From contig PBAU01000010.1 in NCBI GenBank assembly GCA_002716355.1, forward strand, positions 1 through 32,000: DNA of 32,000 nt, written 5' to 3'. Every line of letters starts with the position of its first letter. Positions within the stretch are counted from its first letter, which is position 1. This DNA comes from a bacterium (GTDB lineage Bacteria; UBP7; UBA6624). Under the pieces are notes generated by a model. The model was not told the DNA's origin. It did not search any database and saw only the letters and a list, made by a program, of their open reading frames with translations. This document shows positions 1,065 through 28,958 of this stretch, piece after piece. The translations under genes and the position numbers were made by a program.

Positions 1065-1115
1065 AGCTTTTTGGACTTGGTATAACTTATTTGTGTTTGG
1101 GTCTTGCAACCAAAA

Positions 1116-12010: not shown

Positions 12011-12774
12011 TTTGAATTAGCAAACTGAGGTTTTGGTAAATCTTCATTACTGGAAGAGTAAGGAAAACCAGCCCTTTTGCACAAATGATGAATTTTTCCA
12101 CCTTGAGGACCGATACCAAGACCTTTTTGACCATTCATCCATGCAAGCAAAAGAGGATGATACCTAGAGCTAATGATGGCATCTTTTCTTGACAAAAATA
12201 TAAAACTTTTTTTGATATCCTCTGTTTGATGATAAAAATGATTAAAATCACTAAAATTACAAAAATAATTTCTTTTATCTGAAATGAATACAGAATCCGC
12301 TAAAGCGGGAATGAATTGATCGGCTGGATAAGGACACCACACTACTCCCTGCCTGATGGAATTATTGATACAAGGGAGACAGACTGAATCTAAACCTTGT
12401 TTAAGCTTTAAAAAACTTGTTGCTGGCCTTAGTTCAAAAAAATCAAATTTTAAATTAATCAAAAAATTTAACAAAAACTTTTTAAAAGGGCTTTTTAATT
12501 CGGTTAAATCCATATCATAAGCCTGCGCCTTTCTTGAAAATAAAACCATAAAAAAATACCAATAAAAGGATGCGTTTGAAGTTCTATCTTGAAAAAGACC
12601 ACCTCCAGGAAGAATAATATTTTTTAAAAAAGAAAAAGAAAAATTACATTTCTTAGGAATAAAACCCTTGCTGCAAATTCGATTAGTTTCCCATTTTTTC
12701 ATGGCATCATTAAGAATCCAATCATCTCCAAAATTAGCTTGAGAAAAAGACCCTAGCAATATATTTTTATTCAT
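12001..12774 (-). CDS. Polysaccharide pyruvyl transferase family protein (CsaB-like)
   Basis: N-terminal GSFSQANFGDDWIL and C-terminal SSRYHPLLLAWMNGQKGLGI fit the PS_pyruv_trans pattern. It is shorter than a typical CsaB. Confidence 0.55.
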   Translation of the reverse strand: MNKNILLGSFSQANFGDDWILNDAMKKWETNRICSKGFIPKKCNFSFSFLKNIILPGGGLFQDRTSNASFYWYFFMVLFSRKAQAYDMDLTELKSPFKKFLLNFLINLKFDFFELRPATSFLKLKQGLDSVCLPCINNSIRQGVVWCPYPADQFIPALADSVFISDKRNYFCNFSDFNHFYHQTEDIKKSFIFLSRKDAIISSRYHPLLLAWMNGQKGLGIGPQGGKIHHLCKRAGFPYSSSNEDLPKPQFANSKWI

Positions 12775-12804
12775 ACCAAGTATGTTAAACTTGGAAAGCC
12801 GAAA

Positions 12805-13041
12805 ATGGAAAACAAAAAAAACAAAAATGAAAAACCTGTAATACCTGTAAGTTTTACAAAAGCAATTGCGATGCTTTTTCTTGGTTTTTTCATCTGGATT
12901 CTTATGAAGATATCGTCACAAGAAATAGAGTTTTCATTTTTGTTTCCAGAAGCTAAAAAAATCAAAGTTGGGTGGCTTTTGCTTTTTTCCTTTGCTTCTG
13001 GCTACATCTTTTCAAAACTACCTTTAAAATTGAAACTTTAA
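12805..13041 (+). CDS. Small two-TM membrane protein, LapA/DUF1049-like
   Basis: Layout is TM1, then QEIEFSFLF, then a TM2 ending GYIF, which resembles LapA-family proteins. Its stop abuts the trxB ATG. Preferred over the antisense ORF 12771..12965. Confidence 0.45.
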   Translation: MENKKNKNEKPVIPVSFTKAIAMLFLGFFIWILMKISSQEIEFSFLFPEAKKIKVGWLLLFSFASGYIFSKLPLKLKL

Positions 13042-13968
13042 ATGAATAAAATAGACCTAGCAATCGTTGGTGGTGGAGCAGCTGGCATGGCTGCTGCCCT
13101 ATATGCAGCAAGGTCAAATCTAAATGTTGTACTTTTCGAAGGGCAAAGCCCAGGGGGTCAAATCACATTAACAAACGAGGTAGAGAACTATCCTGGATTA
13201 GGTGTAGAAAACCCTATATCTGGACCAGAAATAGCAATGCTTTTTTTAAATCATGCTGAAAAATTTGGTTCAAAAACCGAATACACTTTTGTTGATTCAA
13301 TAGAAGGTACCGCAGGAAAATTTATCCTAAAAACCTCAAATGGAAGTTGGCTATCAAAAGCAATAATCCTAGCTCCAGGATCAAAAGCTAAAGAGATTGG
13401 CGTGCCTGGCGAAAGGGAGCTTATGGGTCTTGGTGTCTCAACATGCGCAACATGCGATGGAGCTTTCTTCAGGGATCAAGAAGTTGTCGTGATAGGTGGT
13501 GGAAATAGCGCAATTGAAGAAGGCTTATTTTTAACCAGGTTTGCAAAAAAAGTAACAATAGTGCATAGAAGACAAGAATTTAGAGCCACTCCAGTCATAC
13601 TGGAAAGAGCTAAAAAGAACAAAAAAATCGAATGGAAGCTTGACTGTGTTGTTGAAAAAATAAATGGAAAGAACAAAGTTGAAAATGTAGAAATAAAAAA
13701 TATTAAAAACAATCAAACTGAAACTTTTGAAACAAACGGTGTGTTTATTTTTATAGGCCATAACCCAAATACCAACTTTATAAAAAATACTGTTAATCTT
13801 GATGATCAAGGCTATATAGATGTTAACAACAAACAAGAAACAAGCATAAAAGGAATATGGTCTGCAGGAGACTGCTCTGATCATCATTACAAACAATTGA
13901 TAACAAGTGCTGGCGATGGCGTAAAAGCAGCACTTAATGCTATTCATTGGCTAGAAGAAAACAGCTAA
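13042..13968 (+). CDS. trxB: Thioredoxin-disulfide reductase
   Basis: GGGAAG FAD fold, redox-active CATCDG, GGGNSAIEE NADPH fold, and C-terminal GDCSD. Confidence 0.95.
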   Translation: MNKIDLAIVGGGAAGMAAALYAARSNLNVVLFEGQSPGGQITLTNEVENYPGLGVENPISGPEIAMLFLNHAEKFGSKTEYTFVDSIEGTAGKFILKTSNGSWLSKAIILAPGSKAKEIGVPGERELMGLGVSTCATCDGAFFRDQEVVVIGGGNSAIEEGLFLTRFAKKVTIVHRRQEFRATPVILERAKKNKKIEWKLDCVVEKINGKNKVENVEIKNIKNNQTETFETNGVFIFIGHNPNTNFIKNTVNLDDQGYIDVNNKQETSIKGIWSAGDCSDHHYKQLITSAGDGVKAALNAIHWLEENS

Positions 13969-13971
13969 AAA

Positions 13972-14931
13972 ATGCAAAAAATCTATTCAATTGATTTTAA
14001 AAAAGCTTTACAACGAATTGAAAAGCATATTGTAAAAACACCATTAATTGATTTTGAATCAGGCAACCCTAAAATCAAACTTAAATTAAAACTCGAATGC
14101 CTTCAGAAAACAAATTCATTCAAGGCAAGAGGCGCAATGAACCATATACTTCAATTAAGCAAAAGGCAAAAAAGAAAAGGTGTAGTTTCAACAAGTTCTG
14201 GAAATCATGGAAAAGCAGTTTCCTGGGCTGCAAAAAAATACTCTGTCCCTGCAACAATATGCATGGAAAAAAAAGCATATAAAAATAAAATCAAAGCTTG
14301 TCAAGACCTTGGTGCTAATGTGTTTCTTGGCTCCTCAAGAAAAGAAGCTGAAGACGAATGCACTAAACTCGTTGAACAGGGATTGACACTGATTCATCCG
14401 TACAACTCCGCAAAAACAATTGAAGGAGCTGGAACAATTGGGCTAGAAATAGCCGAACAATGGCCTGAAGTTGATGTTGTATGTGTGGCTTCAGGTGGAG
14501 GAGGCAGTATATCTGGAATCTCTTTAGCTTTAAAAAGAGCACTTGGTTCAAAAATTAAGATACTAGGAGTGGAACCAAAAGGCTCACCCAATCTAACAAA
14601 AGGTCTTGAAGCTGGGCATGAGTATTTTCTGAAAAAGATAGAAACAGAAATTCAAGGCTTATGTCCATTGAGCACAGGTGATATTAATGTGGATATCTGC
14701 AAAGAAAATGTTGAAAAAATCCTTCTTCTTGATGATTGTGACATATTTAAAACACAAAAAAAATTAATGGAAAATAACAATTGGATAGTTGAGCCAGCAG
14801 GAGCAGCGGCGGCAACTCCAATTTTCAACGATCTGTTTCCAAAATCATGGACAAAAAACAAAAAAGAATTGAATGTTGTTGCTATTGTTTCAGGAGGAAA
14901 TGCAGATCAATCACAAATTAGAAACCTCTAA
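13972..14931 (+). CDS. PLP-dependent serine/threonine dehydratase family enzyme (threonine ammonia-lyase / serine racemase-like)
   Basis: PLP-lysine motif NSFKARGA, SSGNHG, and glycine loop SGGGGSISG. At 319 aa it lacks an ACT regulatory domain. Confidence 0.85.
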   Translation: MQKIYSIDFKKALQRIEKHIVKTPLIDFESGNPKIKLKLKLECLQKTNSFKARGAMNHILQLSKRQKRKGVVSTSSGNHGKAVSWAAKKYSVPATICMEKKAYKNKIKACQDLGANVFLGSSRKEAEDECTKLVEQGLTLIHPYNSAKTIEGAGTIGLEIAEQWPEVDVVCVASGGGGSISGISLALKRALGSKIKILGVEPKGSPNLTKGLEAGHEYFLKKIETEIQGLCPLSTGDINVDICKENVEKILLLDDCDIFKTQKKLMENNNWIVEPAGAAAATPIFNDLFPKSWTKNKKELNVVAIVSGGNADQSQIRNL

Positions 14932-14934
14932 ACA

Positions 14935-15567
14935 CTAAAGATCGGCAAGTTTTTTTTGCTCTCGATCAATTCGTATCTTCCTTGAAAGAAACCAAAACAA
15001 CCATGATAAAAAACATAAATAAAAATAAGCAATATGCTCTTTAAAAAATAAATCAAAACAAAAACTCAACAAGAAAATAAAAGCCAAGCATGAAATTACA
15101 AAAAAACTAAACTTTAACCGCTTTCCAAGATTGAATACTACCGTGCCGCATATCCATGAAAAATAAGGAAAAAGAATTGGGATACACGCATTTATCAAAG
15201 CCATTTCACCGCTGCCTGATCGAGCAAGGTAAACAGCAAGAAATAAATAAGTATAAGAAACCAAGAAAGAAGCTCCGACACCCAGCATCAATCTACTGCC
15301 ATTATTCTCTCTATCAGGCTTAAATACAAAATGAGGAACAACAGCAAGTAAGAGTACAAAATAACTTGATAACGACAATATACTCTCTTTGAAAAACAAA
15401 ACAATAAGACCTGTCAGAAAACCAATAACTAAAGATTGAATTCTGGCGCCATCAGATAAGGCAACTTTTATATTCATCAAGTTGCCAAATAAAAAAATAG
15501 CAAGTATTTCAAAAAGAAGTAAAGGAGTTGTTCCCACAAAAGTATCATAAGACAATCTAGAATCCAA
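14935..15567 (-). CDS. Hypothetical polytopic membrane protein
   Basis: About 6 hydrophobic segments and no motif I recognise. The track start is a TTG only 3 nt from the divergent ammonia-lyase ATG, so the true start may be internal (for example the GTG at codon 11). Confidence 0.5.
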   Translation of the reverse strand: MDSRLSYDTFVGTTPLLLFEILAIFLFGNLMNIKVALSDGARIQSLVIGFLTGLIVLFFKESILSLSSYFVLLLAVVPHFVFKPDRENNGSRLMLGVGASFLVSYTYLFLAVYLARSGSGEMALINACIPILFPYFSWICGTVVFNLGKRLKFSFFVISCLAFIFLLSFCFDLFFKEHIAYFYLCFLSWLFWFLSRKIRIDREQKKLADL

Positions 15568-15570
15568 ATT

Positions 15571-17097
15571 ATGAAGAAATTTTATTTAAATGGCTACAAC
15601 CTAACAGCAAGAATGCTTACGAAGGTTTCTAGAGGGAAGGTAAGTCTCGCAATTGAAGACGAATGCTGGACTCGAATTAACAAATGCAGAAACATGGTTG
15701 AAGAAAAAATCGAAAAAAAAGAACCCATGTATGGAATAAATACAGGAATTGGAGAATTTTCTGAAGTAACATTAAATGAAGAACAAACTCGAAAATTCCA
15801 AAATCACCTTGTTTACTCTCATGCTGCAGGAATAGGAAAGGCAATGTCAAAAGAAATTGTTAGAGGTGCAATGTGTGGAAGAATAAACGTCCATTGCAAA
15901 GGTTTCTCTGGTGGCAGAAAAGAAATCACTGAAAAAATGATTGAAATCCTCAATAGCGATGTAATTCCTTATGTTTGTGAAAAAGGATCTGTAGGAGCAT
16001 GCGGAGACCTTGCTCCAATGAGTCAGATTGCTTTAACCATGATGGGTGAAGGTGATGCTTTCTATAAAGACAAACTAATGAAAGCAAAAGACGCTCTTGC
16101 CAAAGCAAAAATCAAGCCTTTGAAGCTAGAAGCAAGAGATGGCTTGTCAATAATCAATGGTTCAAATGTCCTTACAGCGCTTTCAGCTTTAATCCTCAAT
16201 GATGCAAAATTATGGCTAAAAACACACGACCTTTCAGCCTCAATGACGCTTGAAGCTCTTAATGCAAATATGAGACCCTACAAATCGAAACTTCACGAGC
16301 TAAGAGGTTTTACAGGCTCTAAAAAAGTAGCAAAAAATATCACTGCCTTAACAGAAGGATCAGAAATTCTAAATTCTAAAAATAAAAAACTACAAGATGC
16401 TTACTCTTTGAGATCCACTCCACAAGTAGCAGGAACGCTTAGAGATTCACTTTCATATGCATTGAAACAAGTTGAAATTGAATTAAATGGAGTTGGAGAT
16501 AATCCAATATTTCTGCCAGAAGAAAAAGAGGTTTTAACTGGAGCTAACTTTCAAGGAACTCCTGTAGCGCTACCAATGGAAATGATTGGAACTGGACTAT
16601 CTATGGTTGGAGTGCTTTCAGAAAGGAGAATGAATAGGCTTGTGAACCCAGCTCTTTCAGGGGGACTGCCTCCTTTCCTTACAGAGGATCCGGGTTTTAA
16701 TTCAGGATTAATGGTTAGTCAATACACTGCAGATGCTCTATGTGTAGAAAACAGAATACTCAGTCATCCTGCAGCAAATCAATCCATACCAGCAGCAGCA
16801 GATCAGGAAGATTTTGTTTCAATGGGCTTAACAACAGCGCAAAAAACAAAAAAAATTCTAGAAAACTGTTGGGGCATTCTTGCAATAGAGATGTTGGCAT
16901 CGGCACAAGCTATCGAATTAAGAAAGCCCGCAAAACCAAGTCCAATAATTACTGAAATTGTTAAAGAAATAAGAAAAAACATCAAACATTTAGATGATGA
17001 TAGACCATTGTTTGATGATCATAACAAAATGGTTGAAATTTTAAGAAGCGGCAAACTGGTTCAGATAATAGAAAAGAAACTTGGAAAACTTGAATGA
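15571..17097 (+). CDS. Histidine/aromatic amino-acid ammonia-lyase family enzyme (HutH-like) with Ala-Cys-Gly at the MIO position
   Basis: YGINTGIG, LVYSHAAGIG (Ser-His as in HAL), GSVGACGDLAPM (canonical GSVGASGDLAPL), DAYSLRSTPQ and NQEDFVSM. No hutU or hutI lies nearby. Confidence 0.88.
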   Translation: MKKFYLNGYNLTARMLTKVSRGKVSLAIEDECWTRINKCRNMVEEKIEKKEPMYGINTGIGEFSEVTLNEEQTRKFQNHLVYSHAAGIGKAMSKEIVRGAMCGRINVHCKGFSGGRKEITEKMIEILNSDVIPYVCEKGSVGACGDLAPMSQIALTMMGEGDAFYKDKLMKAKDALAKAKIKPLKLEARDGLSIINGSNVLTALSALILNDAKLWLKTHDLSASMTLEALNANMRPYKSKLHELRGFTGSKKVAKNITALTEGSEILNSKNKKLQDAYSLRSTPQVAGTLRDSLSYALKQVEIELNGVGDNPIFLPEEKEVLTGANFQGTPVALPMEMIGTGLSMVGVLSERRMNRLVNPALSGGLPPFLTEDPGFNSGLMVSQYTADALCVENRILSHPAANQSIPAAADQEDFVSMGLTTAQKTKKILENCWGILAIEMLASAQAIELRKPAKPSPIITEIVKEIRKNIKHLDDDRPLFDDHNKMVEILRSGKLVQIIEKKLGKLE

Positions 17098-17101
17098 CAA
17101 A

Positions 17102-18184
17102 ATGCAAAACTTAGATTCATTTAAAAAAGATTTAAAAAAATTCACAAAAGAAAAAATCAAAACAAGAGCTGAAAAAAACAATGAATCTGAAAAATATGAC
17201 ACGAAAACCGCAGTAGAAATATGCAAGAAAGGATGGCTTGGCATATCCGCTCCTGAAAAGTATGAAGGTGGTGGCAAGGATCCATTATGGACTTATGAAA
17301 TCATAAGAACATTTTCACAAGAAGATATAACAGCTGCAGCAATCATCACTGGTCAATTCACACTGGTTGCAGAAATATTGATTAACGAATGCCAAGAAGA
17401 TATCAAAAATAATTACGTACCTAGGATATTAAATGGTGAGATTAATGGCTGTTATGCATTGACAGAACCAGATGCTGGATCAAATCCTTCCGAAATGAAA
17501 TCAAGGGTTAAAAAAATAGAAAAAGGCTGGATTTTAAATGGTCAAAAAATGTGGATAACAAATGGAAACATAGCAGATTTAGCAATCGTATACGCCAAAG
17601 AAGACGATGCTGTAAGCTGCTTCTTAGTTGATATGAAATCAAAAGGAATATCAAAAACAAAAATACATGGAAAAATGGGATTTAAGTCAAGCGACACTGC
17701 AGAGATATCATTTGAGAACGTATTTATACCTGATCAAAATCGCATAGGCAAGAAAGGGAAAGGTTTAAGTGTTGCATTTAAAGCTTTAGATAATGGGAGG
17801 CTTGGTATATCAGTTATGGCATTGGGTGCAATTGAAGGCATACAAAAAAGATTAATTGAAATCGCAAAAAACAAACCAAGTCAAAAAAATATAGAAGATG
17901 TAGCCAAGGTGGAAGTGATAATCGAATCATGTAAATCACTAATATCAAAAGCAATAGATCTGAAATCAAATAAAAAAAATTTCACCAAATACGCATCTAT
18001 GGCAAAACTTAAATCAACAGAGGGAGCAACAAAAGCAGCAAATATGCTGACTGACAAATCAAGAGATAAGTTTGCAAATAGAGTTTGGAGGGATGTCAGA
18101 GTCATGGAGCTTTTTGAAGGAACTAGCGAAATTCAAAAACTTATAATTGGAAACATGATAACCGGGTTCAAAGCATTTAACTAA
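17102..18184 (+). CDS. Acyl-CoA dehydrogenase family protein, divergent C-terminal domain
   Basis: ALTEPDAGSNPS, WITNG and ELFEGTSEIQ (catalytic Glu position). The ATG at 17102 lies 4 nt after the lyase stop. An in-frame TTG at 17081 is an alternative start. Confidence 0.85.
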   Translation: MQNLDSFKKDLKKFTKEKIKTRAEKNNESEKYDTKTAVEICKKGWLGISAPEKYEGGGKDPLWTYEIIRTFSQEDITAAAIITGQFTLVAEILINECQEDIKNNYVPRILNGEINGCYALTEPDAGSNPSEMKSRVKKIEKGWILNGQKMWITNGNIADLAIVYAKEDDAVSCFLVDMKSKGISKTKIHGKMGFKSSDTAEISFENVFIPDQNRIGKKGKGLSVAFKALDNGRLGISVMALGAIEGIQKRLIEIAKNKPSQKNIEDVAKVEVIIESCKSLISKAIDLKSNKKNFTKYASMAKLKSTEGATKAANMLTDKSRDKFANRVWRDVRVMELFEGTSEIQKLIIGNMITGFKAFN

Positions 18185-19393
18185 TTGAAAAAAAACCAAT
18201 TTTACGAAGATTCATTTTCTATTCCTTATGTCAGAATATTAAACAGCATACTAGCATTCTTGCTTAAGAATAAAGCAAAAGTTAAAAAAATAGAATTTTC
18301 AGAAAGGGACAAAAAAAAACTAAAAAAAACTTTATCAAATGGAGCCCTGATCGCCTGCAATCACCCTACAGATTTTGACCCCCCTTCCCTATACTGCGCA
18401 TTGAGAAAACTAAATCTGGAATTCAGGATAATGACTGCAAGAGATGTAATGTCTAGAACCCCATATATTTTTAGAAAATTAATACAAATGGGTGGCTGCT
18501 TTTCAATAGACAGAACTAAACTTGATAGAAAATCCTTATCAAGGTCAATTGAAATCCTTTCCAGCAAAAAAAATTTGATTGTTTTTCCAGAAGGGAGAAC
18601 ACATGGACAAGGCAACAGAATTCTTGAATACCAGCCAGGCCCAATAAAAATTGCAACGCTTTCTTCCAGAAAAACAAAATCATCTATAAAAATTTTACCA
18701 ATTGCGATTTATTATTCAATAATTGGTGACAAAGATAAAATAATCCAAAAACGATTAGAGGAACTTGAAAAAATACTCAAAATTAAAGCCGATAAAGGAA
18801 ACGACATAGACCTTCGAATTAGCCAAATTGTGCATTTGACAATTAGAAAACTTGAAAAACAAGAAGGGTACGAGGAGCCAGAAAAAAAATACAAAAAATC
18901 TACAGCCAGATGGGAATGGCTAACTTCAAGGATTCAAAAACTGTGTGAAACCTCTATAAAAAATATTGAGATCAAGCTAAAAATAAGACTACTTGAAAAA
19001 GATACGCTTTCTAGCAGGGTGCAGAAAGCAAGAGAAGCAAACGATCTAACAAAAAACAAAAAAGAAAAAAATGCAAATACAAAAAAGATATTGATGCTCC
19101 ATTCATTATCATCCTTGAATTTCAAAAACTGGAAAGAATCACATGAATCAATTGAGGAAATATTGGCAATTTTTTCAAAAGAGATACATAGGCTTATGGA
19201 TAAAAAACATGTTATAAAAACTGAAAAAAAATGTCACTTTAAACTGGGTAAAATCATTGAAGTCAAAAATTTAAAACACTCTACTCCAAGCTCATCTAAA
19301 GAGCATGAAAAAAAATTATTAAACCTGCTCTGGAAATCAACTTGGCAACCTTTAAACGAACTTAAACAGGAGAACAGTACAATTATCAAATGA
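18185..19393 (+). CDS. PlsC/LPLAT-type acyltransferase with a Lys/Glu-rich C-terminal region of about 200 aa
   Basis: HX4D motif NHPTDFD, FPEGRT block and PIAIYY block. The TTG start comes immediately after the ACAD stop. The stop overlaps the next ATG (ATGA). Confidence 0.8.
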   Translation: MKKNQFYEDSFSIPYVRILNSILAFLLKNKAKVKKIEFSERDKKKLKKTLSNGALIACNHPTDFDPPSLYCALRKLNLEFRIMTARDVMSRTPYIFRKLIQMGGCFSIDRTKLDRKSLSRSIEILSSKKNLIVFPEGRTHGQGNRILEYQPGPIKIATLSSRKTKSSIKILPIAIYYSIIGDKDKIIQKRLEELEKILKIKADKGNDIDLRISQIVHLTIRKLEKQEGYEEPEKKYKKSTARWEWLTSRIQKLCETSIKNIEIKLKIRLLEKDTLSSRVQKAREANDLTKNKKEKNANTKKILMLHSLSSLNFKNWKESHESIEEILAIFSKEIHRLMDKKHVIKTEKKCHFKLGKIIEVKNLKHSTPSSSKEHEKKLLNLLWKSTWQPLNELKQENSTIIK

Positions 19394-21072
19394 TGGTTTG
19401 GATAAAAAAAATATTATCAAAAATTCTTTCATTCTCTTTAAAGCCTGAAAATAGCGATCATCTGGCACACCTTTTTGTCATTTCTTGGAAAAAAAACTTT
19501 AAAAAAACTGCAATAACAGAAAACAAAGATGGAAAATGGATCAATATTTCATATGGCGAATTAGGCTTGGCGGTTCATAAGGTTGCAGGATGGCTTAAAA
19601 ACCAAATAGGAAAATCAGAAAAAAGAATTGGCATTTTTCTTCCAAATTCAGCTGGTTTTGTCGTATCTTTTTTCTCATGTCAAATATTAGGCAAAACAGC
19701 AGTTCCTTTAAATTATGCGCTTTCCCCAAAAGAAGTAAAAGATGTTATAAACGATGCTCAAATAAAAACATTACTTACATTTCAAGCACCTGAAGGCAGA
19801 GCAACAAAAATATTCGGCAATACCTTGGACTACCTTCAAAAAGAGATAGATGATTTAAAAATACTAAAATTAAACAAACCTAAAAATCAAAAAGAAATCC
19901 AGAGGTCAAGTTTTCTAAAAAGCCTCCCAAAGCCAAATCCTGAAGACATATCTTGTTACATATACACTTCCGGCTCAACTGGAAAACCTAAAGGCGTAAT
20001 GCTTTCACATGGAAATTTATCTAGCAACCTTTCAGACTTTTGGAAAGTATTAGGAGATACAGAAAATCACACAATAAGCGGAGTCTTACCTCTTTTCCAT
20101 TCTTTTGGATTGACAGCAGGAATGCTTGCTGGAATGCTTTCTGGTGGTAGATTTGTTCCTGTGCCAGCATTTCAACCAAAAATAGTTCTTGACATAATCA
20201 AGTCTCAAAAAATAACCGTTCTTGAACTTGTTCCATCAATGTATAACTCTTTAATAAACGCTGCAAATAGATTAAAGAATCCTGAAAAAGACTTATCTTC
20301 AATACAGTTAGCTGTAGCTGGAGGAGCACCTCTGCCAAGAGAGGTAATTGAAAGATTTGAAAAAATTACAAAAATTCCAATATATGAAGGGTATGGAGCA
20401 AGTGAAACTAGTCCGGTAATTTCATTTAACAGGCCAGGGAAACCTCCAGTTTTTGGAACATGTGGTATTGCTTTTCCAAGTGTAAAAATTCAACTCAGAG
20501 ATGAAAATGGAGATGAAATTACAACTGCGTTAAGCCCTGAAGATAATTCCAAATCACCAATCAAACCAAAAGAAAATGCTGAAGGTGAAATATGGATCAA
20601 AGGACCAAATGTTTTCAAAGGCTACCATGGAAAAGAAAAAGAAACAAATGAAGTATTGATCAATGGGTGGTATCGAACAGGAGATATAGGAAAATTTGAC
20701 AAAAGGGGAAATCTAACAATTTGTGGAAGAGCAAAACACATGATCATAGTTGCTGGAGAAAATGTTTATCCAGCGGAAATTGAAGATGCCGTTATGAAGC
20801 ATCCAGAAGTTAAATCAGTTGTAGCCATTGGAATACCAGATAAAAAAACTGGAGAAAAAATAAAAGCATTCGTAGAGTTAGAAAACCAGAAAGACAACCA
20901 AGAAATAAAAAATAAAATTATTTCTTTCCTGAATCAAACAAAACTACTAGCAACATACAAAATGCCAAAAGAGATAGAAGTTGTCAAGGAAATCCCCATG
21001 CTGCCAACAGGAAAACCTGACATTCCTGCAATTAAGGGCGAAAGAGATCCTATAAAAAACAAAAACTTATAA
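19390..21072 (+). CDS. ANL-superfamily acyl-AMP-forming ligase (acyl-CoA or acyl-ACP synthetase, Aas-like)
   Basis: YIYTSGSTGKPKGVMLSH, GYGASETSP, YRTGDIG, and LPTGKPD (A10 Lys). AVPLNYALSPKE...AQIKTLLT resembles my memory of the E. coli Aas MLNYTAG...AEIKTIFT region. Confidence 0.88.
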   Translation: MMVWIKKILSKILSFSLKPENSDHLAHLFVISWKKNFKKTAITENKDGKWINISYGELGLAVHKVAGWLKNQIGKSEKRIGIFLPNSAGFVVSFFSCQILGKTAVPLNYALSPKEVKDVINDAQIKTLLTFQAPEGRATKIFGNTLDYLQKEIDDLKILKLNKPKNQKEIQRSSFLKSLPKPNPEDISCYIYTSGSTGKPKGVMLSHGNLSSNLSDFWKVLGDTENHTISGVLPLFHSFGLTAGMLAGMLSGGRFVPVPAFQPKIVLDIIKSQKITVLELVPSMYNSLINAANRLKNPEKDLSSIQLAVAGGAPLPREVIERFEKITKIPIYEGYGASETSPVISFNRPGKPPVFGTCGIAFPSVKIQLRDENGDEITTALSPEDNSKSPIKPKENAEGEIWIKGPNVFKGYHGKEKETNEVLINGWYRTGDIGKFDKRGNLTICGRAKHMIIVAGENVYPAEIEDAVMKHPEVKSVVAIGIPDKKTGEKIKAFVELENQKDNQEIKNKIISFLNQTKLLATYKMPKEIEVVKEIPMLPTGKPDIPAIKGERDPIKNKNL

Positions 21073-21074
21073 AC

Positions 21075-21206
21075 ATGAAAGAATTCTTTAAAAGAATCAT
21101 CAATCTGTTTAAACCCTTTTCATCAAATTTTGAAAAAGAGCTTAAACAAGAAATGGAAAAAGAAAAAAAAGAACAACTAAAAAGAGACAGGTTTAGAAAA
21201 AACTAA
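21075..21206 (+). CDS. Possible 43-aa basic small protein ([43 protein letters not shown])
   Basis: An ATG-to-TAA ORF fills the only sizeable gap between the convergent operons. Its stop overlaps the etfA stop. It is below the ORF-track length cutoff and no homolog is recognisable. Confidence 0.25.
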
Positions 21207-22084
21207 ACGCTAACCCACTTTTCAAGCACCTCTTTCCAGTCAGCAACAATTCCATAATCACATATATCAAATATCGGAGCATTTCTATCAGTGTTTATCG
21301 CAACTATCACAGAGGAATTCTGTATTCCTGCTCTATGCTGAACAGCTCCTGATATCCCAAAGGCAACATAAAGTTTAGGACTTACTGACTTTCCAGTTTG
21401 ACCAATCTGATGTGAATAATCAATCCAACCCATGTCAACAACAGCTCTTGAAGCCCCAACTGCTGCATCAAGCTTTCCTGCAAGCTTCTTCAGTGATTCA
21501 AAACCTTCTGGACCTTGTATACCTCTTCCTCCTGAAACAACCACATCTGCAGATGTTACATCCTTGTTCTCATCGCTACTTTCTACTGATTCAAGAATTT
21601 CAAATGAAACTGAATCCTGCCCATCAAGAGAGACCACTGAAGGATTTTTTGCTTCCCTAGCGCTTGAGTCAATTGCCTTGGAATTAAATTGAACACAACC
21701 GGAAGAAATCTTTGATGTATAAAGAACCTTTCCACCAAAACCGTATTTCTGCAAAACAATATCGCTATCATCCTTACAGTAATCAAAACCATGACAGCCC
21801 CAAACTACAGGCTCATAAGCACTAACAGAAAAAGAAGCCAATATTTCGCCAGTAAAACCATCATCCAAGCCAACAATAACAACCTGTTCATCAAAATGAT
21901 CAGACAGTCTCCTTCCTGATTTAATAGAGTTATTTGAATCTACATGTATCAAATCTTCAACACCGAAGAAATCAAAATCACATTTTTCACCTATCCAAAT
22001 AGCACCATCTGCTGAAATCTGATTTGACAATTTTGCACAAAGATCTTTATCACTGTGAGTATGAGCTAATATAAAAATCTTCAT
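21203..22084 (-). CDS. etfA: Electron transfer flavoprotein alpha (large) subunit
   Basis: C-terminal FAD domain motifs [43 protein letters not shown] and VAINTD. Confidence 0.9.
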
Positions 22085-22842
22085 CAGAAACCCTCCTTTT
22101 TCAACTCTGCATGAAAGTCAGAAAAGGACTCAATGCCTTCCCATATTTTATTTTTTCTCTCTTTTTTAACATTTTCAACATTAACAACCTCACATCTCTG
22201 ATCAAACTCAAGGGCTTTTTGGTTAATGTCTAAATCTGAAATGGCTAATTTTTCAGGCTGAGGCGCTGACAAAACAGCCATTACATCTGGTATCCTAGGT
22301 TCAGCAACAGTTTTATAAACCGACAAAACAGATGGGTTTTTTACTTTTGCTTTTGTTTTTTTCCCTTGATAGTTAAAAACAACAATTGGCTCAGATGAAA
22401 AATCCTCAACTGAAGAAACTTGATTTAAACAATCCCATCCCAAAAGAGACGCAATTGCAGAAGGCAACAATCCACCCTTTCCATCAGCAGCTGATGCACC
22501 GCATATAACCATTCCAGCATTAACCTTTTTTGCTAATGCAGCAAAAACATTAGCTGTAGCAACTAAATCAGCACCATTTAATGAATCATCAAAAATATGG
22601 CAACAAGAAGCACAACCCATTGCACCAAGTTCAGACAACATTTCAGAAGCCGACTCAGGACCCATTGTCGCAAGGACAACCTCACCAGAAACAGATTCAG
22701 CTATTTGGATTGCAAGCTCAACAGCAGATTCATCATCAGGATTAACAGTTTTTGGAACACTTTCTCTATTAACTATGCCATTTTTACCAAAAGTTAAATC
22801 GGTAGTAGCAGGGACTTGTTTTGCTAAAACTAATATTTTCAT
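22084..22842 (-). CDS. etfB: Electron transfer flavoprotein beta (small) subunit
   Basis: [11 protein letters not shown] and [11 protein letters not shown] match the EtfB N-terminal pattern. 1-nt overlap with etfA and ATGA overlap with the ACAD. The central [10 protein letters not shown] region diverges from the usual D.D..QVG motif. Confidence 0.85.
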
Positions 22843-24083
22843 TTTTTCACCTCATTTAATAATTCTTCAGGTATCCATTGATCTATTGTTGGTATGAAGG
22901 AATCAAGAAATTTGAGAGACGTAGCCTCACGTGCAACATGCCTGCTAACAACAAGTCTTTGGATTTGATTTGTTCCTTCGTAAATTTGAGTGATCTTTGC
23001 ATCTCTCATATACTTTTCAACTGGATAATCTTTCATAAAACCATATCCACCAAAAATCTGAACAGCTTCTGTTGTAACCCACATCGCTGTATCAGTTGCA
23101 AAAAGCTTACCCTGGGCAGCCATCTTGTTTGCCTTAGCCTTCAATGATGGATCTTTATCAGCAGCGTCAATCATTCTTGCAGATTCATAAACTAACTGCC
23201 TTGCTGCTTCAATTCTTGTAGACATATCAGCTAGAAGAAATCCTATTGATTGGTGATTTTGTATAGGTTGACCAAATTGTCTTCTTCTGGAAGCAAACCT
23301 AGAAGCATATTCAAATGCTCCTTGAGCACAGCCTAAAGCTTGAGCTGCAACACCAGGTCTTGCATGGTCAAGAGTCTCCATTGCAATCTTAAAACCTTTA
23401 CCTTCAGAATCGCCTAAAAGATTCCATTTTGGAACGGCACAATCTCTAAAATAGAGCTCTCTTACAGGAACACACCTAATCCCCATCTTGTCTTCTTCTT
23501 TTCCTAGCTCAAAACCGTCTGTTCCCTTTTCTACAACTACTGCTGAAATGGCAGAGGGTTTTCCAACCTGGCTTGGATTAGTGACTCCAAAAACTGAATA
23601 ATAATGTGCCACTCCACCATTTGTATTCCACTTTTTATCACCATTAATCACATACTCATCATCATTTTTAGAGATAAGAGTTTTTAAATCTGAAGCATTT
23701 GATCCAGCCATTTTTTCAGACAAAGCAAAAGAGATCAACCTTTCACCATTTGCAATTTCAGGTAACCACTTTTGCTTCTGCTCCTCTCTTCCCCCTAAAA
23801 TTATTGGGTAGGAGCCTAGAGCATTTACTGCAAACATAACACCTACTCCACCACATGCTCTAGATAATTCCTCAACAACCAAGCAAAGATTCAAGCTTCC
23901 AAGGCCATTGCCTCCATACTCTTTAGGTATCCAAGTTTTTAGCAAACCACTTTCTGCAAGAGCTTCTTTAACTTTCCATGGATACTCCTGTTTCCTGTCG
24001 TGCTCAGAAGCTAAAGGCCTTACAACGTTTTCTGCAACATGTTTCGCCTTTTCTTTAATTTCAAAATTTACACTATCTAACAT
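22839..24083 (-). CDS. Acyl-CoA dehydrogenase (canonical, short/medium-chain-like) with a C-terminal tail of about 30 aa
   Basis: ALSEKMAGSNAS, KWNTNG, RRQFGQPI, IFGGYGF and QIYEGTNQIQ. The start lies 1 nt after the fabF stop. Confidence 0.92.
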   Translation of the reverse strand: MLDSVNFEIKEKAKHVAENVVRPLASEHDRKQEYPWKVKEALAESGLLKTWIPKEYGGNGLGSLNLCLVVEELSRACGGVGVMFAVNALGSYPIILGGREEQKQKWLPEIANGERLISFALSEKMAGSNASDLKTLISKNDDEYVINGDKKWNTNGGVAHYYSVFGVTNPSQVGKPSAISAVVVEKGTDGFELGKEEDKMGIRCVPVRELYFRDCAVPKWNLLGDSEGKGFKIAMETLDHARPGVAAQALGCAQGAFEYASRFASRRRQFGQPIQNHQSIGFLLADMSTRIEAARQLVYESARMIDAADKDPSLKAKANKMAAQGKLFATDTAMWVTTEAVQIFGGYGFMKDYPVEKYMRDAKITQIYEGTNQIQRLVVSRHVAREATSLKFLDSFIPTIDQWIPEELLNEVKK

Positions 24084-24084
24084 A

Positions 24085-25320
24085 TCAAGATCTCCTTAAA
24101 ACTAAACAGGCATTATGCCCTCCAAATGCAAAAGAATTTGACATTGACACATTAACAACCGAATCCCTCGCATCATTAGGAGTATAGTCTAAATCACAAT
24201 CAGGATCATTCGTGTTGTAATTTATCGTTGGAGGCACAATATTTTCTCTCATTGAAACAACACAAGCAGCGCACTCTATTGCACCAGCAGCACCTAACAA
24301 ATGACCATGCATACCTTTTGTGCTTGAAATGTTCAATTTGCCAACATCTGAACCAAAAGTTAATTTAATTGCATTCGTTTCCATCAAGTCATTAAATTTT
24401 GTAGAAGTTCCATGAGCGTTAAGGTAATCAACTTCAGAAACAGGAATCTGAGCATCCCTTAAAGCAAATTCCATAGCCTTTGACGGGGATTCTCCGTTTA
24501 AGTTTGGTGATGTTATGTGGTAAGCGTCACTCGTGACAGCATAACCAGCAACCTCAGCTAAAGGAACACCTCCTCTCTTTTTTAAACTTTGCTCACTTTC
24601 AAGAATAAAAGCGACAGAACCCTCTCCCATTACAAAACCGCTTCTGTCCATGTCAAATGGTCGACTCGCTTCAGATGGATTATCATTAAAATTGCATGCC
24701 AATGCTTTCATGTTTGAAAAACCAGCTAAGGAAGTTGGTGCTATAGCTCCTTCGGCTCCTCCGGTAACCATTACATCCATAATTCCATTTCTAATCAAAT
24801 GAAAAGCTTCTCCTATTGCTATTGTTCCAGTAGCACAAGCTGCAACTGGAGCCGTCGAATAACCTTTTAATCCATATTTAATTGATATCCATCCAGGAGC
24901 TATATTGCATATATTTTTTGGGATGTAAAAAGGACTTATAAACCTGGGGCCCTTTTTAAAATATTTATCAAATTGAGTATGATGCTCCCACATTCCGCCT
25001 ATTCCGCTACTTAAATTAACGCCTACCCTATAAGGATCTATTTCTTCAAAATTGATATCTGAATTTTCTACAGCCTCCTGAGCTGCTGCCATTGAAAACT
25101 GTGTAAACCTATCCATTTGCCTTGAATCTTTTGGATTGATATGCTCTGTAGGGTCCCAATTAGGAACCTCACAAGCAACCTGGCATTTGTGATTGGCAAC
25201 ATCAAATAAAGAAATATTTCTAACAGTAGATTCACCTTTTAGCAAACCTTTCTGCAGGCTTGAAAAGCCATTACCAAACGGTGTCACTGCACCAATACCT
25301 GTAATAAAAACCCTTGTCAT
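24085..25320 (-). CDS. fabF: 3-oxoacyl-ACP synthase II
   Basis: Active-site ACATG, HGTSTKFND and GHLLGAAG. About 410 aa. ATGA overlap with fabG. Confidence 0.93.
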   Translation of the reverse strand: MTRVFITGIGAVTPFGNGFSSLQKGLLKGESTVRNISLFDVANHKCQVACEVPNWDPTEHINPKDSRQMDRFTQFSMAAAQEAVENSDINFEEIDPYRVGVNLSSGIGGMWEHHTQFDKYFKKGPRFISPFYIPKNICNIAPGWISIKYGLKGYSTAPVAACATGTIAIGEAFHLIRNGIMDVMVTGGAEGAIAPTSLAGFSNMKALACNFNDNPSEASRPFDMDRSGFVMGEGSVAFILESEQSLKKRGGVPLAEVAGYAVTSDAYHITSPNLNGESPSKAMEFALRDAQIPVSEVDYLNAHGTSTKFNDLMETNAIKLTFGSDVGKLNISSTKGMHGHLLGAAGAIECAACVVSMRENIVPPTINYNTNDPDCDLDYTPNDARDSVVNVSMSNSFAFGGHNACLVLRRS

Positions 25321-26072
25321 GAAACGTCCATACCTCCATTAACTTTTAAAATTTGGCCAGTTACATAAGAAGACTGATCAGAAGACAGAAAAGCAACTGC
25401 AGAGGCAACATCTTCAGGTTGGCCAAATTTCTTCATAGGTATAACACTTAAATAAAACTCCCTCATACTTTTGTTTATATCCTTAGACATATCAGTATCA
25501 ATCAAACCAGGACTAACACAATTGACTGTCACATTCCTATCTGCAAACTCTCTTGACATAACTCGCATCAAGCCTTCAATTCCAGATTTGCTTGCTGCAT
25601 AATTGGATTGTCCAGGCCCTCCAACTGAAGCTGAAACACTTGAGATAAACACAATTCTTCCAAACCTTTTCTTAAGCATTTTTTTTACAGCAATCCTAGA
25701 GCAATAAAATGCACTATTCAAATTTACATCTATAACTTTGTTCCAGCTATCATTTTTCATCATTGATGCAGGTGCATCTTGCCTAATTCCACAACAATGT
25801 ACAAAAATATCAATTCCTGAAAGGAAACTTAAAGATTCTTTCATGAAGCGATCACATTCATCTTGGGAAGAAAGATCAGCGCATAAAGCTTTCACCTTTG
25901 AATTACCAAGAGAAAATTCCGATTCTACAGATTCTGCCAGGTCATGATCACTTCTGTAACCTAAAACTATATTAGAAGAATAGGATGAAAATAATTTTGC
26001 AACTGAATAACCTATGCCTCTTATCCCTCCTGTGATAACAATATTCTTACCTGAAAAATCAAAATTCAACAC
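25317..26072 (-). CDS. fabG: 3-oxoacyl-ACP reductase
   Basis: TGGIRGIG, the NYAASKSG catalytic motif and VNCVSPGLIDTDM. Confidence 0.9.
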   Translation of the reverse strand: MLNFDFSGKNIVITGGIRGIGYSVAKLFSSYSSNIVLGYRSDHDLAESVESEFSLGNSKVKALCADLSSQDECDRFMKESLSFLSGIDIFVHCCGIRQDAPASMMKNDSWNKVIDVNLNSAFYCSRIAVKKMLKKRFGRIVFISSVSASVGGPGQSNYAASKSGIEGLMRVMSREFADRNVTVNCVSPGLIDTDMSKDINKSMREFYLSVIPMKKFGQPEDVASAVAFLSSDQSSYVTGQILKVNGGMDVS

Positions 26073-26078
26073 AAACGA

Positions 26079-26987
26079 TTACCCCTCTTTACCCATACCA
26101 AATTGCAAATAATTAACCTTAGGTCTATTGTCCTCCCTAGGAATCATATTAAATAAAATTTTTCCAGGACCAACGTCAACCCAAGAATCAAAACTAAACC
26201 TGGAAAGCTCCTTTAAATTTTGCACCCATCTGACAGCTCCTTCAATTTGGTTTATCAAATTATCTTTAATAGAAGAAGGATTGTCTTCATGCATGCAGCC
26301 AGTGAAATTCGAAGCGACTGGCCATGCTGAAGATTTAAATTCAACATCTTTCATAAAATGTTTCATTCTTTCCTTTGCCTCTTTCATTAAAGGAGAATGA
26401 AAAGGTGCTGAAACCTTAAGTTCAACGGCTTTTAGATATCCAAAATCCCTTGCTGTCTCAACGGCTCTTTTTATAGCCTGCATATCACCCGAAAGCACAG
26501 TTTGTTTTTGAGTATTAAAATTAGCAGGGACAAGACAAAAATCACCCTTGCAAGCCTCAAGTAAATCATCAAGATTACCAGAGCCAAGAAGAGCAACCAT
26601 TCCACCTTGACCTTCTTTGACAGCCTCCTGCATTGCTTTTCCTCTTTCCCTCACAAGCCTTAACCCATTCTCATAAGATATTACACCTGATGAAACCAAG
26701 GCTGTATACTCACCTAAAGAATGTCCTGCTGCTGCAACAGGGCTCAACTCATAAATATTTACCAAATATTTATGGGCTGCATAACCGACTGCCAAAAGAG
26801 CCGGTTGAGCGTTTTCAGTTAAGGTTAAATCATCCATAGGCCCTTCAAAAATTAATTTTGAAAGATTGAACCCTAAAATTTGATCAGCTTCATAAATAAG
26901 CTTAATTGATTCTTCACTACCTTTCAAAAAATCAGCCATACCGACTTTTTGAGCACCTTGACCAGGGTACAAAAAGCAATAACTCAT
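26079..26987 (-). CDS. fabD: Malonyl-CoA:ACP transacylase
   Basis: FLYPGQGAQKVGM and GHSLGEYTAL. The ATG at 26987 forms an ATGA overlap with the fabH stop. The longer track ORF to 27056 would run inside fabH. Confidence 0.92.
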   Translation of the reverse strand: MSYCFLYPGQGAQKVGMADFLKGSEESIKLIYEADQILGFNLSKLIFEGPMDDLTLTENAQPALLAVGYAAHKYLVNIYELSPVAAAGHSLGEYTALVSSGVISYENGLRLVRERGKAMQEAVKEGQGGMVALLGSGNLDDLLEACKGDFCLVPANFNTQKQTVLSGDMQAIKRAVETARDFGYLKAVELKVSAPFHSPLMKEAKERMKHFMKDVEFKSSAWPVASNFTGCMHEDNPSSIKDNLINQIEGAVRWVQNLKELSRFSFDSWVDVGPGKILFNMIPREDNRPKVNYLQFGMGKEG

Positions 26988-27973
26988 ATCTTTTTCCATT
27001 TGATCAAGACAGAACCCCATGCAAAACCTGCACCAAAGCTTGTCATCAAAACCCAATCCCCATCCTTAAGCATATTCTTATTGTTTGCATCTTCAGCCAA
27101 TATAGGAATTGTTCCATTTGTAGTATTGGCATATTTGTCAATATTAATAGGACATTTACTTTTATCAAGTTTTAACCTTTTTGCAATCGCCTCAATCATG
27201 ACCCCATTTGCCTGATGAAAGAGATGACAACCTATATCAGAAGGATCAAGAGAATTCTTTTCGCAAATATCCTTAACCATTTGAACAAATCTTCTTATCC
27301 CAACTTTATAAACCTTGCTTCCATCCATCCTTACAAAGTGCTCTTTCTTGCTTACTGTTTCTTTTGTTGCGGGGCTTATGGAACCTCCAGAAGGCATATA
27401 TAAATATTTACCACCAGAACCATCAGAACCCAACAAAACATCATGGACACCGTAGTCACCCTCTTCACCTTCCAGCAAAACAGCTCCTGCCCCATCACCA
27501 AAAAGAACAGCTGTTGAACGGTCCTCCATGTCAAGTATAGAACTCATGATGTCACCACCACAAACCAGTATTTTTTTATGAAGTCCAGAAGATATCATTC
27601 CGGAAGCCATTGAAACACCGTAAACAAAACCAGGACATGCATTCACTAAGTCAAAAGCACCTGCATTAACAGCTCCAAGTTTATCTTGAACCAAATTAGC
27701 TGTATTTGGAAACATCATATCTGGAGTAACAGTTGCAACAATTATTAAATCTAATTCCTCAGCCGACACGCCCCTTTTCTTCAAAGCCTTTTCAGCAGCG
27801 CTTACACAATACTTACTTAAACCTTCACCTTTGTCTGCAAATCTTCTTTCTCCAATCATTGATCTTTCTCTTATCCATTCGTCACTAGTGTCCATAACTT
27901 TAGACAAATCATCATTTGTGTAAACTTTATCAGGAACAGATGTCCCAATCGATGTGATAACAGCTCTAATCAT
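26984..27973 (-). CDS. fabH: 3-oxoacyl-ACP synthase III
   Basis: NACPGFVYG (active Cys), HQAN and GNTTNG-like NTTNGT motifs. The ATG at 27973 has GGAG 8 nt upstream. An alternative ATG lies at 27985. Confidence 0.92.
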   Translation of the reverse strand: MIRAVITSIGTSVPDKVYTNDDLSKVMDTSDEWIRERSMIGERRFADKGEGLSKYCVSAAEKALKKRGVSAEELDLIIVATVTPDMMFPNTANLVQDKLGAVNAGAFDLVNACPGFVYGVSMASGMISSGLHKKILVCGGDIMSSILDMEDRSTAVLFGDGAGAVLLEGEEGDYGVHDVLLGSDGSGGKYLYMPSGGSISPATKETVSKKEHFVRMDGSKVYKVGIRRFVQMVKDICEKNSLDPSDIGCHLFHQANGVMIEAIAKRLKLDKSKCPINIDKYANTTNGTIPILAEDANNKNMLKDGDWVLMTSFGAGFAWGSVLIKWKKI

Positions 27974-28958
27974 TTTTTTCTCCATTTTGTCTCATTATTA
28001 AATTTTTCATATGTTTGATTGCATTAAAAATCGCCTTTGGATTTGAAGAGCCATGACATATGAAAAAAGGTTTCTTCAAGCCAAGCAACGGCGCTCCTCC
28101 ATACTCAGAATAATCCAATCTTTTTTTAACACTTTTTAATGATTTTTTTATTCCACCTTTAGCCAAGGGTATAAAAATATTACTTCTTGCAGATTCCTTA
28201 AGCCCTGAAGCAAGCATTTCCATCAAAGAAACAGCTATACCTTCAGCAAATTTCAAAATAACATTTCCTACAAAACCATCACAAACAACAACATTTATCT
28301 CTTTACCCTGACCTCCAACCTGTCTCCCTTCAATGTTTCCTACAAAATTAAACAATCCTTCTGATGACGCTTCATCCATCAGGTCGTAAGCTTTTATGGA
28401 CTCCCTATCACCCTTGCCTTTTTCAGATCCAATATTTAACAATCCAACTGTTGGATTTTTTTTACCTGACCAAAAACTATAAAACTCACTGCCTAACTTC
28501 GCAAACATTAAAAGATCTTCTGCTTTTGTGTCTACATTTGCACCAACATCAAGCAAAAAAACTGGATTTTCACTTGTGGGTATAAATGTTCCTAAAACTG
28601 GTTTTCTGACATCTTTCCTCTTGAGGTACTTGGAAGCAGCAACAACAGAGGCTCCTGAATGACCTGCTGAAATTGTCCCATGCGAAAGGTCATCTCCAGA
28701 AAATTTAGTCGCAAGCCCTAATGAGGTCATTTTTAACTTCTTAAGAAAAGAGATAGGTTTTTCACTCATGCTAACCTCCTCTTCTGTGTGTTTAATAGTT
28801 ATGTGTCCAGCCTTTCTGTTGTTTAAAAGTTTATTGATTTTTGTTTCATCACCAAATAAAACTAAATTGACATTAAGTTCAGATGCCAATAAAGCACCTT
28901 CAACTATAGACTCAGGTGCATCATCTCCACCCATGGCATCCAAAGATATAGTTATCAC
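27966..28958 (-). CDS. plsX: Phosphate acyltransferase
   Basis: MITISLDAMGGDDAP N-terminus, VVCDGFVGNVILK and HGSSN motifs. Confidence 0.92.
   Translation of the reverse strand: MITISLDAMGGDDAPESIVEGALLASELNVNLVLFGDETKINKLLNNRKAGHITIKHTEEEVSMSEKPISFLKKLKMTSLGLATKFSGDDLSHGTISAGHSGASVVAASKYLKRKDVRKPVLGTFIPTSENPVFLLDVGANVDTKAEDLLMFAKLGSEFYSFWSGKKNPTVGLLNIGSEKGKGDRESIKAYDLMDEASSEGLFNFVGNIEGRQVGGQGKEINVVVCDGFVGNVILKFAEGIAVSLMEMLASGLKESARSNIFIPLAKGGIKKSLKSVKKRLDYSEYGGAPLLGLKKPFFICHGSSNPKAIFNAIKHMKNLIMRQNGEKND

Follow-up and report, generated by a model that had tools for sequence, protein, structure and literature searches.

A gene string of ammonia-lyase, acyl-CoA dehydrogenase, acyltransferase and ligase in a marine UBA6624 bacterium: shared pathway or conserved neighbourhood?

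Do four tightly packed genes encode one pathway, or do separate functions lie side by side? The question is raised by contig PBAU01000010.1 of assembly GCA_002716355.1 (GTDB lineage Bacteria; UBP7; UBA6624), of which positions 1 to 32,000 of the forward strand were analyzed (the window). Within it, four genes on the plus strand encode a HutH-type ammonia-lyase, an acyl-CoA dehydrogenase (ACAD1), an acyltransferase with an HX4D motif and a ligase of the ANL family (Table 1). An initial annotation of the DNA read them as a translationally coupled cassette, a candidate pathway for an acyl- or aryl-lipid, in which the lyase makes an unsaturated acid, the ligase activates it, ACAD1 reduces or oxidizes the enoyl thioester together with an electron-transfer flavoprotein (ETF), and the acyltransferase loads the product onto a lipid acceptor. 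Our analysis gives about even odds (a probability of roughly 0.5) that the genes are instead juxtaposed housekeeping functions in a gene-dense genome and do not form one linear pathway. Every one of the four either belongs to a known family or is divergently related to one; it is their arrangement that is unusual and restricted to a lineage.

The four family assignments were borne out by Pfam and NCBIfam, and the open reading frames (ORFs) lie exactly where they had been placed, with the claimed spacings of +4, 0 and −4 nt at the lyase/ACAD1, ACAD1/acyltransferase and acyltransferase/ligase junctions. The +4 spacing depends on taking the ATG at 17102 as the start of ACAD1; an upstream TTG at 17081 would give 367 aa, and homologues of 360 aa back the ATG. 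The 0-nt junction depends in turn on the TTG at 18185 as the start of the acyltransferase; N-terminal conservation backs this start, among the relatives as well as in an alignment of the broader family. Public gene calls begin this protein at Met83 (320 aa) and so leave a false "intergenic" gap of 246 nt (18185–18430). That start is wrong, because it deletes the HX4D motif (H60...D65).

The four genes are probably co-transcribed. Their packing was taken by the initial annotation as a sign of a shared pathway, and this argument does not hold in the present genome. The window has a GC content of about 36%, and metagenome scaffolds of 154–244 kb from Tara Oceans carry identical DNA. It contains 33 genes at a coding density of 97.5%, with a median same-strand gap of −4 nt and 84% of the same-strand junctions at 5 nt or less. 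Pairs of unrelated genes are equally tight, such as sdh and an S41 protease (−4), the S41 protease and an M23 peptidase (−11), and trxB and a pyridoxal phosphate (PLP)-dependent dehydratase of the PALP family (+3). Tight junctions are therefore the genome default, and there is nothing specific about those of the four-gene string. A promoter and terminator scan of positions 12700–21400 gave counts at or below the shuffled expectation and yielded no operon boundaries, and Rfam and tRNA scans of the window returned only a tRNA-Glu (29487–29558), with no riboswitch or leader near the string.

The string is conserved in a single rare, uncultured lineage (GC 36–73%): it was found in only 6 of 185,579 GTDB species representatives, and in addition on some metagenome contigs. 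Close relatives (ACAD1 74–88% identical) have all four genes, and their junctions measure 2–7, 0 and 1–3 nt, as taken from the listed ORFs of contigs L008 and L013 or from tblastn coordinates in L009. Gene order is also kept on four divergent contigs from at least three deeper lineages, namely L005 (GC 73%), L006 (71%), L014 (54%) and L028 (53%); the last two, with identical matches to ACAD1, acyltransferase and ligase, probably represent the same lineage. Identity to the window proteins on these contigs is 46–49% for ACAD1, 48–52% for the ligase and 27–41% for the acyltransferase. All four contigs carry these three genes, and three of them (L005, L006 and L028) have the lyase at the head; none was seen in L014, which ends upstream. 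Single genes come and go within this order. Between lyase and ACAD1, the deeper relatives encode a 2-oxoacid:acceptor oxidoreductase of two subunits (TIGR03710, 588 bits); in L005, L006 and L028 there is a 4-nt overlap between the gene for its beta subunit and that for ACAD1. A second, tandem acyltransferase of the same family is present in L005 and L006, a DUF6895 gene follows the ligase in L005 and L028, and in L006 a gap of 197 nt separates the lyase from the next gene.

The collinearity extends well beyond the string. Where contigs reach, it also takes in WecG, an unknown protein of 257 aa, TrxB, a membrane protein, etfAB, a second acyl-CoA dehydrogenase (ACAD2) and fabFGDH-plsX, the last of these segments in L006, L009, L011, L013 and L028. 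A block of ~18 genes from WecG to plsX (~20 kb) is thus largely collinear at GC contents of 36, 53, 71 and 73%, with proteins that are often 30–60% identical, an unusually deep macro-synteny for bacteria (L005, L006, L014, L028 and L029 compared with the window). Since these relatives share most of the neighbourhood in the same order, co-conservation is not specific to the four genes. A check for co-conservation had been proposed: the gene set is kept in relatives, and the ~20 kb around it are mostly collinear too. The order of the four genes belongs to a macro-synteny that spans the lineage, with insertions and deletions of single genes, and is not a mobile or separately conserved cassette. 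From this block the low-GC pelagic lineage lost the KorAB-type 2-oxoacid oxidoreductase, one acyltransferase and DUF6895 and kept the four, and their retention under streamlining fits a place in core metabolism.

By its active site the lyase is a histidine ammonia-lyase (HAL), with the deamination of histidine as its predicted activity. It passed the cut-off of the HAL subfamily model NF006871 (555.1 against 524 bits), narrowly missed that of the hutH equivalog TIGR01225 (527.6 against 539.15 bits), and aligned over its full length with Pseudomonas putida HAL (PpHAL; PDB 1GKM/1GKJ, phmmer, 320 bits). In this alignment Y53, S82-H83, N195, Q277, Y280, R283, F329 and E414 of PpHAL are all kept. 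These residues have catalytic and imidazole-binding roles in PpHAL, and the Ser-His pair and Glu414 are the histidine-specific positions that separate HAL from tyrosine (TAL) and phenylalanine (PAL) ammonia-lyases. The selectivity pair of the window lyase is Ser-His (YSHAAG) and not the His-Leu of TAL or the Phe-Leu of PAL, and the TAL, PAL and aminomutase models all remained far below their cut-offs (FlxA TAL 340 of 700, BagA 244 of 1000 and PAL 240 of 519 bits). The arylacrylate that the initial annotation had allowed as a lyase product is not supported, because Ser-His and Glu414 are kept as in HAL and the TAL and PAL models score far below their cut-offs.

The lyase thus resembles PpHAL (PDB 1B8F/1GKM) in overall alignment and active site, but differs from it in the precursor triad of the 4-methylideneimidazole-5-one (MIO) group. 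This triad is Ala-Cys-Gly (ACG; GSVGACGDL) and not Ala-Ser-Gly (ASG), its Cys aligning with S143 of PpHAL, and the ACG triad is found in 119 of the 120 best lyase homologues. An S143C mutant of PpHAL is reportedly active (Langer et al. 1994). A literature search covering the ACG triad, S143C and urocanate in Marine Group II (MGII) found nothing relevant. The lyase differs further from HutH in its score below the TIGR01225 cut-off and in its setting, with neither hutU nor hutI in the ~52 kb made up of the window and 10 kb on either side.

Outside its own lineage, the closest relatives of the lyase (64–69% identity) come from MGII/III archaea (Poseidoniales, Thermoplasmatota, "Marine Group III euryarchaeote"). 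In one of four archaeal contexts the lyase gene, encoding a protein 66% identical to that of the window, is divergent from a urocanase gene with an amidohydrolase nearby; in the other three it stands alone, convergent with an aminotransferase gene. An ACAD, acyltransferase or ligase gene adjoins it in none of the four. The initial annotation had named a plain HutH with hutU and hutI elsewhere, joined to a ligase limited to ordinary fatty acids, as a finding that would speak against its proposal, and the plain HutH is what we see: the residues of the active site mark the lyase as HAL, and so do its closest relatives, one of which adjoins urocanase. In a rough neighbour-joining tree, bacterial and archaeal ACG-type lyases are intermixed at 61–69% identity, which indicates passage of the gene between bacteria and archaea, in either direction. 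Together the homologues point to a large natural HAL subfamily with a Cys-type MIO triad, common to this lineage and the MGII/III archaea. Among the divergent contigs, L028 has a lyase of the ACG type (62% identical to that of the window) and L006 a C-terminal fragment, also of the ACG type. The lyase of L005 (5837–7378), in contrast, is a HAL-family protein with only 33% identity, the canonical ASG triad and scores below both HAL cut-offs, which suggests that in this contig the lyase was replaced in situ by a distant HAL.

ACAD1 looks functional from its motifs: PF02771, PF02770 and PF00441 all scored above cut-off, the catalytic Glu is kept (FEGTSEIQ, aligned with IYEGTSEIQ of 2DVL) and the FAD and CoA motifs are intact. 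It reached no NCBIfam equivalog, the best match being AcrC (210 bits against a cut-off of 640). The best PDB matches were a Thermus thermophilus ACAD, rat short-chain acyl-CoA dehydrogenase (SCAD), CarC and Bcd, at 152–167 bits (CarC 160). A search of 5.8 billion proteins returned eight close clusters (46–99% identity), followed by generic ACADs at ~36%; identity to the neighbouring ACAD2 is 25%.

The acyltransferase has its HX4D motif at N59-H60...D65 and an FPEG motif at positions 134–137, and it fails the PlsC/LPAAT model TIGR00530 (47.4 bits against a cut-off of 102.95). In the predicted model (pLDDT 91.9) the acyltransferase domain is followed by a helical C-terminal domain of ~220 aa. 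Exhaustive profile searching of the representatives revealed a family of ~410 aa matched end to end, with 118 representatives at E < 1e-30 and 714 at E < 1e-10; this wider family was visible in that search only, as a word-indexed search with the same profile gave just 8 proteins. Foldseek placed human GPAT1 (8e4y) first among PDB structures (E 2.4e-5, probability 1.0, ~450 aligned columns), a weak fold match at a TMq of 0.36, a root-mean-square deviation of 21.8 Å and 13% identity; the next match was PatA, over the acyltransferase domain only, and a sequence search of the profile against the PDB gave no match. The protein resembles GPAT1/PlsB-type enzymes in its order of an HX4D domain and a helical C-terminal domain, but at 402 aa it is shorter than these (650–800 aa). 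Elsewhere, family members adjoin genes for a CDP-alcohol phosphatidyltransferase, an alpha/beta hydrolase or a ShlB-type transporter. Tblastn searches of these loci (E ≤ 1e-5) gave no match to the lyase, ACAD1 or the ligase. A metagenome scan with a sub-alignment of the family gave seven loci, none with partners of the string, and eight loci in all were seen without the other components.

The ligase looks fatty-acid-directed, with a substrate that cannot be read from sequence. Its best NCBIfam match is PRK06187, a long-chain-fatty-acid-CoA ligase (372 bits against a cut-off of 476), and it also matches many other ANL families; PDB matches were to feruloyl-/fatty-acyl-CoA synthetase, oxalyl-CoA synthetase, FadD13 and 4CL, at about 160–200 bits. 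An HX4D acyltransferase followed by an overlapping ANL ligase recalls Escherichia coli Aas (PRK08633), which has the same activities in the same order, here on separate genes. The resemblance has limits: the ligase is far below the cut-offs of the Aas models (272 of 1221 bits for NF006386, 236 of 1349 for NF005291), the acyltransferase matches neither model and bears a 220-aa C-terminal domain that Aas lacks, and other members of its family have no ligase neighbour.

Read as housekeeping functions, the four genes would act as follows. Gene identities, motifs, distribution and synteny are as observed above; what each enzyme acts on, and which way ACAD1 runs, are predictions, with the ligase, acyltransferase and ACAD1 steps taken from family membership and intact catalytic motifs. 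HutH would deaminate L-histidine to urocanate and NH3, with an MIO group formed from Ala-Cys-Gly. The FadD-like ligase would turn fatty acids, whether free or scavenged, into acyl-CoA or acyl-acyl carrier protein (acyl-ACP), and the GPAT/PlsB-like acyltransferase would move the acyl group to a glycerol-phosphate or lysolipid acceptor. ACAD1 would oxidize acyl-CoA to 2-enoyl-CoA and pass the electrons to ETF, and in deeper relatives the KorAB-type 2-oxoacid:acceptor oxidoreductase would supply acyl-CoA or succinyl-CoA at this position. The lyase would be a long-standing neighbour at the 5′ edge of this fatty-acid trio. The trio lies tail-to-tail with plsX-fabHDGF-ACAD2-etfBA, which makes the region a lipid-metabolism neighbourhood. 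It also shares with the FadD/FadE/EtfAB route, by which exogenous fatty acids are activated and enter beta-oxidation, a FadD-like ligase, ACADs with a catalytic Glu and EtfAB within 8 kb, and differs from it in that ACAD1 is short and belongs to a lineage-restricted subfamily. Among known systems, the string comes closest to a HutH set next to fatty-acid entry enzymes of the FadD/PlsB/FadE type, or to an Aas split into separate genes.

Several observations weigh against the housekeeping reading. As the initial annotation had stated, the lyase has no hutU, hutI or hutG nearby, and none was found in the ~52 kb; an orphan placement is usual for its archaeal relatives as well. Wherever the contig of a relative extends to this point, the lyase heads the string, the apparent replacement in L005 included, and this could reflect selection to keep a HAL within the transcription unit. 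The genes that would complete beta-oxidation, for an enoyl-CoA hydratase, a hydroxyacyl-CoA dehydrogenase and a thiolase, are absent from the surroundings. Finally, the ACAD1 subfamily is confined to this lineage and this gene context, a pattern more typical of a dedicated function.

The last point also bears on a second explanation, which we consider doubtful. Here ACAD1, the acyltransferase (or both acyltransferases) and the ligase, together with the oxidoreductase of the deeper relatives, would form a lipid-tailoring module that puts an unusual acyl chain (2-enoyl, or short or branched and derived from a 2-oxoacid) on a glycerolipid, and the lyase would be a mere neighbour. The logic would be like that of the tail modules of mycobactin and lipopeptide pathways, in which an acyl-AMP ligase, an ACAD and an acyltransferase are combined. 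The three genes are contiguous in every relative, ACAD1 of this subfamily is seen in no other context, and the 4-nt overlap between oxidoreductase and ACAD1 in L005, L006 and L028, the tandem acyltransferases of L005 and L006 and the 197 nt that set off the lyase in L006 all fit such a module. However, genes for a carrier protein, a thioesterase or further tailoring steps are lacking, overlaps between genes are commonplace in these genomes, and nothing sets the module apart from ordinary fatty-acid recycling. From the mycobactin tail module (MbtK-N) it differs not only in the missing carrier protein but also in an acyltransferase of the HX4D and not the GNAT type, and the MbtN model gave 24 bits against a cut-off of 700.

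Restricted to histidine, the pathway of the initial annotation would run from urocanate to urocanoyl-CoA, through reduction by ACAD1 and EtfAB or without it, to an imidazole-acyl glycerolipid. We regard this as very unlikely. The four genes do keep strand and order wherever a contig reaches, even in the lineage whose HAL appears to be xenologous, and no hut genes lie in the surveyed ~52 kb. The nearest solved structure to the ligase is annotated as a feruloyl-CoA synthetase, and CarC, an enoyl-CoA reductase that works with Etf, is among the best structural relatives of ACAD1. On the other side, Ser-His, Glu414 and the FlxA score (340 of 700) oppose the arylacrylate variant, and the close relatives of the lyase sit in ordinary contexts, as described for the archaea. 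The acyltransferase belongs to a widespread, GPAT1-like family found without these partners, the KorAB-type oxidoreductase breaks the proposed chain in the deeper relatives, the ETF genes belong to another operon with an ACAD2 of its own, the packing is non-specific, and no precedent was found in the literature. The narrower claim that the lyase holds its leading place since its urocanate is the substrate of the string, passed by the ligase, optionally ACAD1 with ETF, and the acyltransferase into an imidazole-bearing glycerolipid found in this lineage alone, deserves slightly less credence than that. Of the linear route from lyase to ligase, ACAD/ETF and acyltransferase, the components are present, but nothing that we found specifically supports the chemistry, and a literature search for the four-gene combination returned no paper describing such a set.

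It is highly improbable that the string serves as an electron sink, in which ligase-activated urocanate would be reduced to imidazolepropionyl-CoA by ACAD1 and EtfAB and the acyltransferase would be unrelated. A ligase, an ACAD-family enzyme and EtfAB do lie close together, as in CarABCDE of Acetobacterium woodii and AcdA-EtfAB of Clostridium sporogenes, CarC is among the structures closest to ACAD1, and the deeper relatives, a Black Sea metagenome-assembled genome among them, have a ferredoxin-linked 2-oxoacid oxidoreductase. In contrast to the known systems, the window holds no CarA-like CoA transferase to recycle the thioester, ETF is operonic with ACAD2 and not with ACAD1, and the organism comes from samples of the sunlit, oxic ocean and carries Sdh; ACAD1 is, moreover, equally close to ordinary SCADs. 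We know of no described CoA-dependent route for the reduction of urocanate, and a literature search returned none. None of these three alternatives has specific evidence in its favour. A flexirubin or aryl-polyene cluster, which like the TAL/CoA-ligase pair of the photoactive yellow protein chromophore would combine an MIO lyase and an ANL ligase in one string, was rejected, given the HAL and not TAL residues of the lyase, its FlxA score and the lack of ketosynthase, DarAB and polyene genes in the string.

The housekeeping reading takes in the genes beyond the string as well (Table 1). As the initial annotation had claimed, a convergent ETF operon lies close by, with etfA ending 130 nt downstream of the ligase on the opposite strand. 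The genes plsX-fabH-fabD-fabG-fabF run on the same strand, in an operon-like arrangement, into ACAD2-etfB-etfA, and acpP, fabZ and fabI are all missing from this operon. The best NCBIfam matches of etfA, etfB and ACAD2 are AcrA, AcrB and AcrC-like, all below cut-off. ACAD2 has its best PDB match in Bcd of the Clostridioides difficile Bcd-EtfAB complex (350 bits) and is better conserved than any other gene here, at 72–97% identity in relatives.

Table 1. Genes of the four-gene string and flanking features of the window.
Feature	Position	Strand	Size	Basis or remark
Histidine ammonia-lyase (HutH-type, MIO)	15571–17097	+	508 aa	Lyase_aromatic PF00221, 555 bits
ACAD1, divergent SCAD/Bcd-like	17102–18184	+	360 aa	Acyl-CoA_dh_N, _M, _1
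HX4D acyltransferase	18185–19393	+	402 aa, TTG start	PF01553, 58 bits
ANL-family acyl-CoA (or acyl-ACP) ligase, FadD-like	19390–21072	+	560 aa	AMP-binding, 278 bits, and AMP-binding_C
Conserved small ORF	21075–21206	+	43 aa	Also in public gene calls
etfA	21203–22084	−		Pfam ETF_alpha
etfB	22084–22842	−		Pfam ETF
ACAD2, Bcd-like	22839–24083	−		ACAD domains
fabF, fabG, fabD, fabH, plsX	24085–28958	−		ketoacyl-synt, adh_short, Acyl_transf_1, ACP_syn_III, FA_synthesis (precomputed Pfam, identical contigs)
Multi-helix membrane protein	14935–15567	−	206–210 aa	No Pfam or NCBIfam match

The convergent gap between ligase and etfA is filled by the small ORF, which overlaps the etfA stop by 4 nt and encodes a peptide, MK.F(F/L)K.II.(L/F)FKPFSS.FEK..., that is kept in L009, L011 and L013. 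At the other end of the string, the lyase forms a divergent pair with the gene for a multi-helix membrane protein. Their start codons are only 3–15 nt apart, so that both promoters must lie inside coding sequence. The membrane protein is found at the same place and in the same orientation in L005, L008, L009, L010, L012, L013 and L028 (GC 36% to 73%); its single-sequence AlphaFold model (pLDDT 53, helices only) was uninformative. Convergent with this gene, and 3 nt ahead of it, lies a stand-alone gene for a PLP-dependent, threonine/serine dehydratase-like protein without a regulatory domain (13972–14931, plus strand), itself 3 nt past trxB; in L005 a GNAT acetyltransferase gene takes its place. 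A further gene, 13 kb upstream of the string (1104–2225, plus strand, 373 aa), encodes an NADH:flavin oxidoreductase of the Old-Yellow-Enzyme family, which could in principle reduce enoates; no link to the string was seen.

Four side observations made at this locus are more concrete than the pathway that was proposed: the ACG-type HAL subfamily, the ~410-aa acyltransferase family with its weak GPAT1-like fold match, the conserved 43-aa ORF, and the Bcd/Etf module inside a fab operon without fabI, fabZ and acpP. The two families and the module are also of value in their own right, as is the finding that public gene calls cut off the active site of the acyltransferase. ACAD and ETF may have a role in the fatty-acid synthesis or turnover of this lineage. 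If the urocanate-derived lipid were real, it would found a new class of membrane lipids built from an amino acid, in an uncultured, globally distributed and abundant ocean bacterium. If the four genes are ordinary neighbours, as we favour, then in streamlined marine genomes that are ~97% coding, overlapping genes and a lineage-conserved order would not be evidence of a shared pathway.

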